Positions 7,485 through 12,135 of a stretch of DNA of 54,204 nt are shown one piece after another. Each line of letters starts with the position of its first letter. The first letter of the stretch is position 1. Origin of the DNA: Nanobdellati archaeon (lineage in GTDB: Archaea > B1Sed10-29 > JAGVWA01); assembly GCA_018304505.1 (NCBI GenBank), contig JAGVWA010000014.1, forward strand, positions 1 to 54,204. The letters are read 5' to 3'. A model generated the notes under the pieces. That model was given only the letters and a program-made list of their open reading frames with translations. It did not search any database and had not been told where the DNA came from. Made by a program: the position numbers and the translations under genes.

Positions 7485-8510
7485 TCAGTTTCCGATGTAT
7501 CTTGAATAGAGGCTCTTGGCCTTGCTTTCGTCATTGGTTCCTTGGATGATGCACCGGCCATTGTTGAATAAGTTGAACGTGTATGGCTTTTTCCTAAACC
7601 GCAGCAGAAACATGTTTGAGTTTAACAGTTCAATGCCCGACCCAGAATCCGTTTTTTTGATTTTCTCTTCAAGGGCCTTGACGTCTACTGCTTTTTCTGG
7701 CAAAATCTGGACGCTGTTTCTGCCGCAAAGCACCGTGGCCCTTTTCTGCTTGTCTTCAAGCCTGGAAAATTGGCGCTGTTTGCACACGCGGCATTGCGGG
7801 TTTTGCTTCATTTTAGAAACGGTAAAGTCATTGATTGACAGGTTAAACGACAGCAGCTGCCCGGATTTTTTCCCACCCGTCAGGCATTTCATGGCTTCAG
7901 AGACCTGCAAAGACGCTGCTGTTGACACGGCTTCACTGGAAACACCGGAAATGTCGCATGTCTCTGGCCGCCTTGGGGGGTTCCTGAAAACGCACTGCAT
8001 GCAGATTTTGTCGTCAAACAGCGCTGCCATGCCCTGGTTTTTTATAACCGAGCCAAAGACGTATGGAATCGCGAGCTTTACACACGTCTCGTTAATAATG
8101 AGTCTGGTTTCGAAATTGTCAGTCCCGTCAATAACAAGGTCATGGCTGCTGATGATCTGCTCTGCGTTTTCTGTGTTAAAGTCCTCAACCATTTCATGAA
8201 CTTCGATGTATGGGCTGGCTTTTTTAGCTTCGATTGACAAAGCAATTGCCTTGGGCAGCCCGATTTGTGGTTCTGTGTACTGTTGCGTTGCCAGGTTCTC
8301 CGGCTCGACAAAGTCCCGGTCTACGAGCGTCAATTTTGGTATGCCGATTTTCGCCATCGCCAGGGCAGTGCTTGAGCCCAGCGATCCGCAGCCGATGATG
8401 CATACCTTGGATTTGAGGGCCTTGCTGAATCCTTTGCCCCAGAAGGTGTGCAGGCGGGCGTGTTTTTCCTGCGGTTGCTGCCCCGGTAATTGGGGGTGTT
8501 GTGGGTACAT
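7485..8510 (-). CDS. ThiF/MoeB (E1-like) adenylyltransferase with C-terminal extra domain
   Basis: GCGSLGS, DRDFVE..NL, DGTDN, CxxC pairs (CMQC, CRVC), TC motif. Confidence 0.93.
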   Translation of the reverse strand: MYPQHPQLPGQQPQEKHARLHTFWGKGFSKALKSKVCIIGCGSLGSSTALAMAKIGIPKLTLVDRDFVEPENLATQQYTEPQIGLPKAIALSIEAKKASPYIEVHEMVEDFNTENAEQIISSHDLVIDGTDNFETRLIINETCVKLAIPYVFGSVIKNQGMAALFDDKICMQCVFRNPPRRPETCDISGVSSEAVSTAASLQVSEAMKCLTGGKKSGQLLSFNLSINDFTVSKMKQNPQCRVCKQRQFSRLEDKQKRATVLCGRNSVQILPEKAVDVKALEEKIKKTDSGSGIELLNSNMFLLRFRKKPYTFNLFNNGRCIIQGTNDESKAKSLYSRYIGN

Positions 8511-8543
8511 TTATTAATAGTAATAGTTGCCCAATTTAAGGGT

Positions 8544-8843
8544 ATGTCTGACTTCTTTGTGATGAAGCCGTGCCAGAAGGCTACTGCTTTTGAGGTTGTT
8601 CCGCAAAAGCAAATGTCAGTGGATTTTGATAGCCTTGGCAAGGTCTTTGAAACCGTCATACGCATCGAAGGAATGATGATCCTCAACATCCAGGGGGTTC
8701 AGGCAACGGTTTATCCGCGGGGCAAGATCCTGATAAGGACTACTGACAGGGACAAGGCGGAGCAGGCCGTGAATTCTATCTATGAAATTGCCGTCAAGGA
8801 AGGATGGTTCAAAGAAGATTCAACTCGGGGGAGTGGGCAATGA
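8544..8843 (+). CDS. Small hypothetical protein resembling the C-terminal domain of the adjacent ThiF protein (TBP-like fold)
   Basis: C..A.EVVP...VD....TVYPRGKILI parallels ThiF C-terminal CGRNSVQILP..VD....NLFNNGRCII; ATGA overlap with thiI. Confidence 0.7.
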   Translation: MSDFFVMKPCQKATAFEVVPQKQMSVDFDSLGKVFETVIRIEGMMILNIQGVQATVYPRGKILIRTTDRDKAEQAVNSIYEIAVKEGWFKEDSTRGSGQ

Positions 8844-9454
8844 AGGGCGTAATGTTGTTGTCAGGAGGCATTGATTCCCCGGTTGCCATGCACCTCATTA
8901 GCAAGGTGCACGACATCGAGGCGCTGCATTTTTCCAATGGGGAATTTGCAGGCAAGGAGTCAGTAGACAAGTCAATACTGATAGCGAAAAAGCTTGGCCT
9001 AACCAGGTTGATGGTTATCGACATCGCGCACCTGCTTAAGGAGATCGCCACAAAGTGCTCAAGGAAATATTATTTTGTCTTGATGAAGCGGTTCATGCTG
9101 CGCATTGCCGAGAAAATCGCATTGCTGAATGAATGTGCGTTCATCTGCACAGGTGACAGCCTTGCCCAGGTGTCCAGCCAGACCATGAAGAACCTGGAGG
9201 TTGTCGATGCAGTCACACCAATGCCTGTGCTGAGGCCGCTTATTGGATATGACAAGGAAGAAATCATTTTGTTGGCCAAGGAAATCGGGACATTTGATTT
9301 GTCGAAAGGTCCGGAGATGTGTGACATACTTGGCCCAAAGCACCCTGCCACCAAGGCAAGGCTTGAGCATGTCATGGAAGAAGAGAAAAAGATCAATGTT
9401 GCGGCGCTTGTTGATAATGCAGTGGCGTCTGCGCGTTGGGCAGCAGTGCCATAA
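8840..9454 (+). CDS. thiI: ThiI-family sulfurtransferase, PP-loop domain only (no THUMP domain)
   Basis: LLSGGIDSPVA, TGDSLAQVSSQT, LRPLIGYDKEEI, IGTF. Confidence 0.88.
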   Translation: MKGVMLLSGGIDSPVAMHLISKVHDIEALHFSNGEFAGKESVDKSILIAKKLGLTRLMVIDIAHLLKEIATKCSRKYYFVLMKRFMLRIAEKIALLNECAFICTGDSLAQVSSQTMKNLEVVDAVTPMPVLRPLIGYDKEEIILLAKEIGTFDLSKGPEMCDILGPKHPATKARLEHVMEEEKKINVAALVDNAVASARWAAVP

Positions 9455-9492
9455 CAGAATGATTTTTATATGCCCACTGTTTCTTGTGCACA

Positions 9493-11643
9493 ATGAGCCG
9501 TGTAAGTGCAGCAAATAAAATGGCAGCGGGCCGTATGGACTTTAAAGTAGAAAACATCCTAGCCACGGCAAAGTATCAAGGCAAGATTGATGTTGACAAG
9601 GTTTCAAGGAAGTACTGGAGCAGCCGATACCATGAAGAGGCGTATGGGGCTTGCCAGGTTAAGTTCAGGGAATCAGGCGCTACATTTGGCTTGTTTGATC
9701 ACGGCAAGTTTACGATAACAGGGGCAACGTCAGAGACGGAACTCGATGATGCTGTAAGACTATTCGCGAAAAAAATAGTTCCGCCACTGAGCGACCGTAA
9801 ATTGATAGTTACAGATGTTAAAATCGAGAACATCCTCGCCACCGCTGACCTAAAGCAGCACATCGACCTTGTGAGGCTCGTGAGGAAAAGCAGGGGCATA
9901 AAATATGACCCTAAGAAATTCCCCGCGGCGTTTGTGCATTTTAAAAAACCTGATGGCACCGTCACACTGTTCGCGAGTGGCAAGCTGACTGTTACTGGTT
10001 TGTCAACCCTGCCGAGCATCAATGAAGTCGTGTCTAAAGTGAAGTCGATTGTAAGCCAGCAGGCTGCACCTGCAAAACCAATATCATTAAGGCCAAAGAA
10101 GATGCGCGCGCGCGTCGAGAACCCCGCCCTGCATTTTGGGGGAGCCTTTGTGATGCCTAAGAGGAGAAAGAGCCCGTTGGATTTCAATGTTGAGAATGTT
10201 CTGGCAACCGCAGACCTTGACACAAACCTTGACTTGTTCCGCATTACAGAGAAAATCAAGTCAGCAAGGTTCAAGCACGGCCCAATGGGGGTAGTGCAAA
10301 TCGATTTAAATGATCCCGATTCTACAATGGCGATGTTTGCTAATGGCAAGATCACTTCAGCAGGGTGCGCGTCGCAAAAGGAACTCTCGGGGTGCTTCAG
10401 GAAAGTTTACGCCATGATAAAGCCACCTTTGTCTGATGACGAACCTCGGCTTTCAAAAATACAAGTTGAGAACATCCTTGCTACTGCTGATTTTAAGAAG
10501 CCCCTGAATTTGCAGAAGATAGCGAGGGCAGCAAAGAACGCAGAGTACAAACCCGCAACCTTTCCCGCGGTCGTTCTGAGGTTTAAGAAACCAGATGCTG
10601 CAGTCGAGTTGTTCGAAAATGGAAAATTGACGTGCATTGGCACCAGGACAATAAAGGATCTCGATGATGTGCTTGCGCAGGCAGCTGCACTGGTTTATTC
10701 AGTGATGCCGCGCCTCGCGGAACGGCCTGCAAAAACAAAGGTAGTGAAGGCAGGGAAGGTAAAAGCGCGACCACGGGTGATTCTGTGGCACAAGCAAAGG
10801 CACGCGAAGCTGAATGCATTTGTTTTAGTGGTGTTGCTGCTGGCCTTGTTCAGCACGGCCCTGATGCGCAGCGATTTAACAGGCCCTATTAACGGTTTTC
10901 CAGAAATCGTTTTCCCGCCGCTGGTGCCGGTTGCGCCGGTTGTTAATGAGACATTTGTTCCTCAAATTCCATCTGGAGGGATTTCCGGCATTGCCCAGGG
11001 GCCTGGCGGTGAGCGGATTGCGCAGCTAATCGTCACTATGAGTGAGCCTACTGACAAGGCCGCGGCCGCAGTGCTGACGTTTTACAATGGCGAGAACCAG
11101 ATATTCTATCCTGAAAAAATCGGAAACGTTTATGACGCGGGCTTGAAAAGCGAGCTTGATGACCCATTTATTATCGAGATAAACTGCAATAGCCTTGGCA
11201 GGCGCGTGGTGTCAAAGTATCAGTTTAATTTCACAGAGCCTATCATGGATTATGTTGCTACGTGCGATTCATTAAGCGGGAGCACTTACACCGCCTTATC
11301 GCGAAAAACAGCTTCTACATTACCCGGAACGCCACAGCAGGAACCAGTGCAGAGCGTGCCAACCGCGCCAGAAAAGTTTTTCATCAACGTAAAACTCGTG
11401 ACATCTGGCAACCAAACAGGGCAGAACATTACCTTGGTGTATGACGATTCGCCCGCGGATCCCGAAAAGCGGACAGAGGTGAGCAACCTTACGAACTCTG
11501 AGGGCTTCACGCAGTTCTACATATTTTCAAGCAACCTTTACTCGCCGTCGTTGTTCTATCAGTTTACCTATCCGTGCGTTGGCGGTGGAAGGAATCATGG
11601 GGAGTACATCAACGTTTACACTACGGTCATATTGAGTTGCTGA
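9493..11643 (+). CDS. Tandem TATA-box-binding-protein domains (4 TBP repeats) + TM helix + extracellular region
   Basis: Four repeats of EN(I/V)LATA...F..GK.T..G; TM helix at about 10810-10866; Pro-rich linker; five N-X-T sequons afterwards. Start could be 9493, 9520 or 9535. Confidence 0.88.
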   Translation: MSRVSAANKMAAGRMDFKVENILATAKYQGKIDVDKVSRKYWSSRYHEEAYGACQVKFRESGATFGLFDHGKFTITGATSETELDDAVRLFAKKIVPPLSDRKLIVTDVKIENILATADLKQHIDLVRLVRKSRGIKYDPKKFPAAFVHFKKPDGTVTLFASGKLTVTGLSTLPSINEVVSKVKSIVSQQAAPAKPISLRPKKMRARVENPALHFGGAFVMPKRRKSPLDFNVENVLATADLDTNLDLFRITEKIKSARFKHGPMGVVQIDLNDPDSTMAMFANGKITSAGCASQKELSGCFRKVYAMIKPPLSDDEPRLSKIQVENILATADFKKPLNLQKIARAAKNAEYKPATFPAVVLRFKKPDAAVELFENGKLTCIGTRTIKDLDDVLAQAAALVYSVMPRLAERPAKTKVVKAGKVKARPRVILWHKQRHAKLNAFVLVVLLLALFSTALMRSDLTGPINGFPEIVFPPLVPVAPVVNETFVPQIPSGGISGIAQGPGGERIAQLIVTMSEPTDKAAAAVLTFYNGENQIFYPEKIGNVYDAGLKSELDDPFIIEINCNSLGRRVVSKYQFNFTEPIMDYVATCDSLSGSTYTALSRKTASTLPGTPQQEPVQSVPTAPEKFFINVKLVTSGNQTGQNITLVYDDSPADPEKRTEVSNLTNSEGFTQFYIFSSNLYSPSLFYQFTYPCVGGGRNHGEYINVYTTVILSC

Positions 11644-11677
11644 GTAGCGAAAATTTAGAGGCCGAAAAAACGAAAAT

Positions 11678-12019
11678 TTAGAGAATCGCCCTGAAGCTTG
11701 CCTCTATTCGTCTTTTTGTCCAGCTTGATAAGGCATAGAGGAAGAATCCGCCGACGATGAAAACGATGAATATCAGCCTGATTAAGTCAAAGCTTTCTAT
11801 CCCTGCTGGTTGGAAAATGTCGAGTAGGAGAAGGATAAATATCGAGCTCGTGATGAGGCTTATGTAGGTGATCTCGTTCGATATTTCCTTTAAATATTCG
11901 ACAAGCAGGTAGTCGTAAGTGAATTGCGTGCCCATGGCTCTGGATGTGCCTGAAGGTTTTGCTTTGCTGTGGGGTGTTGCTTTGCTGCGGCTTGGTTTCA
12001 TGGTGGACGTTGCTGCCAT
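11678..12019 (-). CDS. Small two-TM membrane protein
   Basis: Two hydrophobic helices; TATA-like TTTATA upstream. Confidence 0.7.
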   Translation of the reverse strand: MAATSTMKPSRSKATPHSKAKPSGTSRAMGTQFTYDYLLVEYLKEISNEITYISLITSSIFILLLLDIFQPAGIESFDLIRLIFIVFIVGGFFLYALSSWTKRRIEASFRAIL

Positions 12020-12135
12020 GTTTTCACTTAAGCTGTTTTAGTATAAATATGTAGTGCCATGCCGTCTTTGGCGTGCGCTTTGGTGTGGGCAGGCACTCTT
12101 TCGATTATGTTGTTGAATAAAGGGTTTCTGGGTTT

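Follow-up and report, generated by a model that had tools for sequence, protein, structure and literature searches.

A gene joining four TATA-binding protein repeats to a predicted membrane anchor in an uncultured DPANN archaeon

TBP, the TATA-binding protein, is usually seen as the soluble, universal starter of archaeal and eukaryotic transcription. In archaea it is a basal factor of about 180–200 amino acids (aa) containing two repeats. Other transcription factors have an association with membranes, and in the SREBP, ATF6 and anti-sigma RsiW/RseA systems they are freed by regulated intramembrane proteolysis. ToxR-like regulators (CadC, ToxR and TcpP) bind DNA while in the membrane (PMC6320335, PMC3096576, PMC5430869), and ArnR and ArnR1 of Sulfolobus acidocaldarius are membrane-bound one-component transcription factors that bind promoters (PMC6396743). 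Single-domain TBP proteins and rare isolated domain recombinations are reported in Archaea in the available text of Brindefalk et al. 2013 (PMC3597702). The subject of this report is a gene at 9493..11643 on the + strand of contig JAGVWA010000014.1 from Nanobdellati archaeon (assembly GCA_018304505.1). The window analysed is the whole stretch of 54,204 nucleotides (nt), positions 1–54,204 of the forward strand of this contig. The gene encodes four TBP repeats followed by a predicted transmembrane helix and a C-terminal part that is predicted to lie outside the cell.

The encoded protein is like archaeal TBP in its PF00352 repeats and predicted saddle fold, with the Asn, Gly-Lys, Gly and one Phe column present in all four repeats. 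It is unlike archaeal TBP in having four repeats rather than two, in its length of 716 aa against about 180–200 aa, and in the presence of a membrane anchor and an outside domain. The saddle cores are also basic, the Glu-Pro-Glu motif has been lost, and strand S1 reads N-[IV]-L-A-T where N-I-V-A-S is usual. The layout of a cytoplasmic DNA-binding domain, a flexible linker, one transmembrane helix and an outside domain with a Cys pair is shared with CadC, ToxR and TcpP. Those proteins, however, recruit bacterial RNA polymerase through a winged helix of the OmpR type and bear no sequence relationship to the two TBP saddles seen here. A Pfam scan of the protein at an expectation value (E) of 1 or less returned TBP and a sub-threshold BpuSI_N match, with no OmpR-type winged helix; the BpuSI_N match was dismissed at 22.6 bits, being under its cut-off of 25. 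Because no winged-helix domain was found, the protein does not belong to the ToxR/CadC family, and the comparison is one of analogy. ArnR and ArnR1 are likewise archaeal membrane-bound DNA-binding regulators, yet they are not related to TBP, are gene-specific, and have a different DNA-binding domain and membrane topology. The presence of a factor domain on a single-pass anchor, together with intramembrane proteases in the host genome, recalls SREBP, ATF6 and RsiW/RseA. In this case, however, neither a cleavage motif nor any sign of cleavage was found, and the held domain looks unable to contact TFB. Variation in the number and context of TBP domains in Archaea is a feature shared with the variants of PMC3597702. 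That paper uses none of the terms 'transmembrane', 'membrane' and 'four TBP', and it describes no four-repeat or membrane form. The initial annotation of this sequence knew of no characterised membrane-tethered TBP, and no description of a membrane-anchored or transmembrane TBP was found in the open literature, subscription journals being outside the scope of that search.

The gene is a single stop-free frame on the + strand, 9484/9493..11643, of 719/716 aa according to the start used. All four TBP repeats are inside one 726-aa open frame in a six-frame search of the genome. From the ATG at 9493 there are 716 codons, followed by a TGA stop. The database gene call (P0002) has its start at 9535, 14 codons downstream of this ATG, and is 702 aa in length. 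Archaeal TATA boxes are located about 25 nt ahead of the transcription start site. A candidate TATA box, TTTTATAT, can be read directly from the sequence at 9464..9471 (+), about 25 nt 5' of the ATG at 9493. The two would be compatible with a leaderless transcript and with the gene having its own promoter. The start at 9493 is preferred over that at 9535 because the spacing of TTTTATAT matches a leaderless start.

Continuity of the frame was checked on contigs that Logan had assembled independently from public runs. Contigs from two runs (X1 and X2), which are possibly from the source sample, carry 9000–12100 in one piece with 0 differences. Contigs from two others (X3 and X4) carry 9103–9701, 9684–10482, 10574–10830, 11146–11312 and 11616–12100, also with 0 differences. 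The X3 and X4 pieces are identical, and these runs are therefore probably one data set. These pieces span the junction between the two saddles and the junction of repeat 4 with the basic segment and the start of the helix. The gene has a GC content of 49% and a third-position GC content (GC3) of 0.55, against 0.52–0.61 in the adjoining genes. Both measures are similar in the two halves of the gene, and the base composition of each half is native. The continuous frame across the TBP and transmembrane parts is thus borne out at the level of contigs, with no stop in 716 codons, and the observation of a fusion gene is confirmed.

Four stretches of the protein match PF00352 (whole-protein E 1.1e-71), and each of the four repeats, at 50.8–77.1 bits, is above the curated Pfam cut-off of 22.9 bits. 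Saddle 1 is made of repeat 1 as the N-lobe (9538..9777, E 5.9e-16) and repeat 2 as the C-lobe (9814..10056, E 4.5e-19). Saddle 2 is made of repeat 3 as the N-lobe (10180..10422, E 1.1e-13) and repeat 4 as the C-lobe (10456..10695, E 6.8e-22), all on the + strand. Between the saddles is a linker of residues 192–228 (10066..10176, +) that has a net charge of +9, contains 6 Pro and is predicted to be disordered, with a predicted local distance difference test score (pLDDT) below 50 at residues 192–221. The isoelectric points (pI) of the saddle cores are 9.6 and 8.7, against 5.4 for the core of the genome's own TBP.

The full-length AlphaFold2 (AF2) model was made with an alignment of 101 sequences that covers saddle 2 only. 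Its pLDDT is 95–98 in saddle 2 and 60–83 in saddle 1, which was without alignment cover. In this model both saddles have the complete strand-helix order of a TBP lobe pair (S1-H1-S2-S3-S4-S5-H2, twice). Solved archaeal TBPs include those of Pyrococcus woesei (1AIS, 1D3U and 1PCZ), Sulfolobus acidocaldarius (1MP9) and Methanocaldococcus jannaschii (2Z8U). TBPs were the top Foldseek matches in the PDB (1MP9, 1VOK, 1QNA, 1CDW, 1AIS, 2Z8U and others), with E down to 2.8e-15, TM-scores by target of 0.78–0.94 and root-mean-square deviations of 1.5–1.9 Å over about 178 columns. The reading of the four repeats as two full saddles, made initially from the sequence alone, is therefore upheld by PF00352, AF2 and Foldseek. 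TBP saddles were obtained by structure prediction, so the fusion claim stands.

For a residue-level comparison, the four repeats were set against canonical TBPs, represented by 149 N-lobes and 150 C-lobes. Pairwise identity among the four is 28–37%, yet 11 positions are identical in all of them: E, N, L, A, T and A in strand S1 and F, G, K, T and G in the S4–S5 hairpin. These invariant positions are located on the DNA-facing sheet, not on the convex partner surface. The central Asn, found in 96–97% of canonical TBPs, is present in each repeat, as are the Phe of the L-F-x-x-G-K hairpin (97% of canonical TBPs), the Gly-Lys and the next Gly. A Phe conserved in more than 90% of TBP lobes is described as key to TATA binding in the available text of PMC7221094. 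The stirrup Phe (96–97% of canonical TBPs) is retained in two of the four repeats, repeats 2 and 4, where both Phe columns are present. It is replaced by Tyr in repeat 1 and by Met or a gap in repeat 3, which has the most divergent stirrup.

The same source describes two conserved loop glutamates of TBP that touch an Arg and a Thr of TFB/TFIIB (PMC7221094). The acidic pair of the C-lobe stirrup, with Glu in 83% and 86% of canonical proteins (n=150 C-lobes), is not kept here: repeat 2 has D-P-K at this place, and repeat 4 has K-P-A. Both C-lobes are thus without the Glu-Pro-Glu stirrup that would contact TFB. A predicted complex of the host's own TFB core (residues 100–302) and saddle 2 (residues 225–410) had a score of 0.01 and a mark of 0.32, with the controls not folded, and weighs neither for nor against TFB binding. 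Since the repeats are only 28–37% identical and still share 11 invariant positions on the DNA-facing sheet, the pattern argues for a DNA face that has been held under long-standing constraint, though altered. The TFB handle is gone.

C-terminal to the saddles there is a basic juxtamembrane segment, residues 409–439 (10717..10809, +), with a net charge of +10. It is followed by a single transmembrane helix, residues 440–458 (10810..10866, +), which has a Kyte-Doolittle mean of 2.48 and is within an AF2 helix at residues 430–459. The very basic stretch and single helix that had been noted initially are therefore both present. Residues 440–458 are the sole hydrophobic segment of the protein and there is no N-terminal signal peptide. 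Lys and Arg number 12 in the 40 residues preceding the helix versus 1 in the 40 after it, and the net charge is +34 for residues 1–439 against -10 for the 258 residues following the helix. There are 5 N-X-S/T sequons after the helix (at 485, 579, 640, 645 and 665) and 0 before it, as the initial annotation had counted. The shuffled expectation is 2.5 after and 1.5 before, which makes this contrast modest when taken alone. The Lys/Arg bias, the lack of any other hydrophobic segment, the charge difference and the sequon distribution together point to a cytoplasmic N-terminal part, and a marginal STT3-like frame (25.6 bits) is present. The protein is therefore predicted to cross the membrane once, from a cytoplasmic N-terminus to an outside C-terminus. 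The type II topology that was proposed, with cytoplasmic TBP domains, is supported as a prediction by the strong positive-inside bias and the absence of a signal peptide.

The outside part is an acidic, beta-rich tail of 258 residues. It begins with the Pro-rich stalk that had been noted after the helix, residues 459–489 (10867..10959, +), which has 6 Pro in 31 residues and contains the first sequon, N485. Module 1, residues 490–601 (10960..11295, +), has a pI of 4.4, is beta-rich and contains Cys 565, Cys 591 and sequon N579. A linker defined by its Pro/Thr/Gln-rich composition, residues 602–625 (11296..11367, +), joins it to module 2, residues 626–716 (11368..11640, +). This second module is also beta-rich, with Cys 695 and Cys 716, the latter being the final residue, and sequons N640, N645 and N665. 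The stalk is probably glycosylated. Two beta-rich modules, each with a Cys pair, are thus present as initially described, although the modules are not detectably alike (BLASTP E 1.4) and neither has a confident fold. The outside part modelled by AF2 without an alignment has a pLDDT of 42.1, and within the full-length model this is below 40. Leads for it in the ESM Atlas are all sub-threshold, with feature scores of 0.80–0.85, TM-scores of 0.29–0.61 and a model pLDDT of 0.56.

No relatives of residues 459–716 were found at E ≤ 10 among 735 candidates, and a word index search of region 425–716 among proteins of near length returned only the protein itself. The outside part was not found elsewhere in its own genome, nor in 30 other genomes of the class and phylum. 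For the protein as a whole, relatives were sought in a word index of 5.8 billion proteins and by an exhaustive HMMER phmmer search of 1.84 billion representatives, which gave 2891 matches at E ≤ 0.001, with the best 150 listed. The only full-length match to residues 1–716 in the word index was the query itself, the protein cluster of which has 2 sequences from 1 contig. Likewise, the query was the only full-length match among the best 150 of the 2891 phmmer matches. A whole-protein search of the genomes of 40 relatives found only the protein itself. Pattern matches in a genome contig collection numbered 64, with 0 confirmed, and in a metagenome contig collection 93, with 1 confirmed, this being a one-repeat TBP (L023).

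Among 31 genomes of the phylum, a four-repeat frame is present only in the host genome. None of the 301 genomes of a neighbouring phylum has four TBP matches in one frame, based on the best 150 of 517 match rows and a tally that includes the unpublished genomes G237 and G068, on which none of the conclusions depends. The maximum there is 4 TBP matches per genome, seen only in G066 and G180 and not in one frame. Other multi-repeat proteins among the best 150 of 2891 matches are P0003, P0004 (three repeats) and P0092. P0003 (376 aa) was rejected as a comparable protein; it reads as an exact tandem copy of a eukaryote-type TBP and is probably a gene-model or assembly artefact. Outside the TBP core, no membrane-like segment was found in the other stored top matches, five of which showed only their own hydrophobic TBP strand. 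A search for other proteins with four TBP repeats and a transmembrane helix had been recommended, and no second one was found in the searches covered. The gene is a lineage-specific singleton known from one uncultured genome. Its product is, so far and within these searches, the only instance of this architecture, that of a TBP paralog that is also a putative membrane-integrated DNA-binding protein.

In a FastTree phylogeny of 318 TBP repeats, the four fall together in a separate clade (support 0.71), where repeat 1 groups with repeat 3 (0.73) and repeat 2 with repeat 4 (0.32). The S1 motif N-[IV]-L-A-T is in all four repeats and in only one other protein among about 150 listed top matches and the genome's own TBP. 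This fits a history in which one ancestral repeat was doubled into a saddle and the saddle was then doubled, although the branches are long and their attraction is possible. The doubling is old, rather than an assembly duplication, because the repeats are only 28–37% identical.

The host is a DPANN archaeon whose genome assembly has 21 contigs totalling 917 kb, at 92.8% completeness. A separate canonical tbp, which the initial annotation had asked to be confirmed, is present on contig C3 at 117358–117969, with PF00352 repeats of 92.5–103.5 bits. Its two repeats are 80.7% mutually identical, far above what is usual, and it has a Lys/Ala/Pro-rich tail of 139 residues with a net charge of +44. 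The canonical TBP would seem to have arisen when a one-repeat TBP was recently doubled again. The genome has a single TFB, on contig C1. Three Peptidase_M50 (site-2 protease) frames and one rhomboid frame are also present (C3:68908-69561, C20:30555-31022, C21:21378-21755 and C11:14848-15171).

The function proposed for the fusion protein, tentatively and by analogy, is that of a membrane-resident DNA binder that works without TFB recruitment and follows a logic like that of ToxR and CadC. DNA binding, non-recruitment of TFB, topology and any regulation are each inferred. Together with the basic linkers, the two saddles would clamp bent, A/T-rich (TATA-like) DNA at the inner face of the membrane, where the saddles would be tethered by the 31-residue basic leash and the protein would stay in the membrane. 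The DNA would be clamped without recruiting TFB, and occupied promoters would be blocked, sequestered or kept at the membrane. Clustering or DNA capture could be modulated by the outside domain according to its state (contact, a ligand or the redox state of the Cys pairs).

Several observations weigh against this proposal. No ortholog of the whole protein was found in any protein, genome or contig search. At the Leu column, conserved in 87% of canonical TBPs, repeats 1 to 4 have G, T, A and E, and changes of Val to Leu and Val to Thr at DNA-facing positions are present in all four repeats. Because some of the DNA-facing positions have changed, DNA binding could be weak or of another specificity. 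The placing of the positions named in PMC7221094 on the alignment columns, including C.L3.2 and C.L3.4 on the E-P-E motif, is presumed by us. In addition, the leads for the outside modules are weak and point to generic beta-sandwiches, those for module 2 being CarboxypepD_reg/SpaA-like. Beta-sandwiches of this kind characterise surface proteins with a structural or adhesive role more than they do ligand sensors, which favours a plain tether over a regulator.

Such a constitutive tether between nucleoid and membrane, in which the saddles and basic linkers would hold the small chromosome, the outside modules would anchor the protein in the cell wall layer or on a host cell, and there would be no signalling, ranks just behind the membrane-resident DNA binder and is nearly as likely. 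It shares the evidence of the DNA face and of the charge distribution. The outside modules lead weakly to beta-sandwich, CarboxypepD_reg and SpaA-like surface modules and none leads to sensor folds, although these leads are sub-threshold (0.80–0.85, with TM-scores of 0.29–0.61 from a poor model). Two saddles on a flexible linker of 37 residues could bridge two DNA segments. An SMC gene is located 3.4 kb upstream, though not within one operon with it, and the fusion gene has no link to segregation or division genes. If the cell needed such a tether, its relatives should have one too, but the gene is absent from all 30 of the phylum's other genomes.

The release of a latent alternative TBP by regulated intramembrane proteolysis, after which it would direct a specific gene set, is considered unlikely. 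Type II single-pass proteins have the orientation that is cut by site-2 proteases, three Peptidase_M50 frames and one rhomboid are encoded in a genome of 0.92 Mb, and the TBP fold is intact according to AF2 and Foldseek. The presence of the proteases is of little weight, however, because M50 and rhomboid proteases are found in 14 of 14 control genomes. Both C-lobes are without the acidic pair for TFB contact, there is only one TFB as a possible partner, and the repeats are far more diverged than those of the working TBP (50.8–77.1 against 92.5–103.5 bits). The suggestion in the initial annotation of a released alternative TBP that starts transcription is therefore weakened by the loss of the acidic pair (D-P-K and K-P-A) and by the single TFB. 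Overall, the initial interpretation is partly supported, in that the architecture and topology hold and the option of a released initiation factor is weakened. A low probability, similar to that of proteolytic release, is given to a transmembrane receptor built from the fold of a basal factor. In a host-dependent DPANN cell, such a receptor would sense contact or its surroundings with the outside domain, and the double TBP would then be released or would shift the availability of TATA promoters.

It is improbable that the gene is a non-functional or accidental product, whether a recent fusion, a decaying paralog or an in-frame assembly chimera. It is a singleton, its protein cluster consists of 2 sequences from 1 contig, and no relative of the outside part appears at E ≤ 10. 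No RNA data set with the gene was listed among the public runs, which weighs neither way. Set against this are 716 stop-free codons in a gene of 49% GC, and old repeats that all score over the Pfam cut-off and have an invariant S1 motif in common. The gene also has a candidate TATA box of its own and native composition in both halves, and at least one further data set carries both key junctions with 0 differences, as contigs.

An inverted topology, with the saddles outside as a ComEA-like uptake receptor that binds DNA from the environment or from a host, is very improbable: a TBP-like frame behind a lipoprotein-type signal in the relative G023 makes export of the TBP fold possible in this phylum, but here the N-terminal part of 439 residues has no signal peptide ahead of it, Lys and Arg are 12 versus 1, and 5 of 5 sequons are on the C-terminal side. 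There is equally little to be said for a decoy that binds TFB, TFE or the canonical TBP as its partner and sequesters it at the membrane; the shape is TBP-like and TBPs can in principle pair via their concave faces, but the TFB-contact residues are lost and the invariant positions are on the DNA-facing sheet, not on the convex partner surface.

A doubled, membrane-tied and apparently TFB-blind TBP would show that the saddle can serve anew, at the cell envelope, as a DNA clamp for general use. The few known membrane-integrated DNA-binding proteins of Archaea would also gain a new class. If the receptor reading were true, this would be the first archaeal case of global promoter access being controlled directly from the cell surface. 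The occurrence in one lineage of one-, two- and four-repeat forms, together with a form that has a lipoprotein-type signal, is a natural experiment on the evolution of the TBP saddle.

Within the phylum, 22 of 31 genomes have only one-repeat TBP frames (88–230 aa), which are close to the canonical sequence. Two-repeat frames are present in 4 of the 31, which are the host (G000), G001, G008 and G011. Many genomes of the neighbouring DPANN phylum have a single TBP match among the best 150 of 517 rows. On these sequences, a one-repeat TBP may be the working TBP across much of DPANN. One-repeat TBP-domain proteins that coexist with, and diverge from, a normal TBP are described in the available text of PMC3597702.

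The frame in relative G023 is at C1:23790-24440 and is 217 aa in length. Its hydrophobic N-terminal stretch terminates in L-A-G-C, making a signal of the lipoprotein type, and two divergent TBP repeats come after it. Both repeats pass the Pfam cut-off, at E 3.5e-6 and 1.6e-11. The frame occurs only once in the phylum and may encode an exported TBP-fold protein. Three one-repeat TBPs, L024, L025 and L027 (G023:C15, G026:C1 and G024:C27), have Lys-rich N-terminal extensions of about 60–130 residues, and the TBPs L012 and L017 of phylum relatives have Lys-rich C-terminal tails. Basic, Lys-rich tails seem to be habitual in the TBPs of this phylum, which would fit the linkers of the fusion protein as extra DNA-binding segments.

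The neighbouring genes encode SMC, ThiF, ThiI, a small membrane protein on the opposite strand and the ribosomal proteins P1, P0 and L1; these suggest no function for the fusion gene. PADLOC and PHROGs gave no match for the fusion protein. The small open reading frame (ORF) on the opposite strand (11678–12019, -; 113 aa) is convergent with the fusion gene and has no Pfam, PADLOC or PHROGs match. It has a basic N-terminus and hydrophobic stretches. The PP-loop domain of ThiI is encoded by a 216-aa ORF at 8804–9454 (+). This is overlapped by a 117-aa ORF at 8490–8843 (+), in another frame and with no Pfam match. The two ORFs may represent a split or frameshifted thiI, or the shorter may be a separate small gene.

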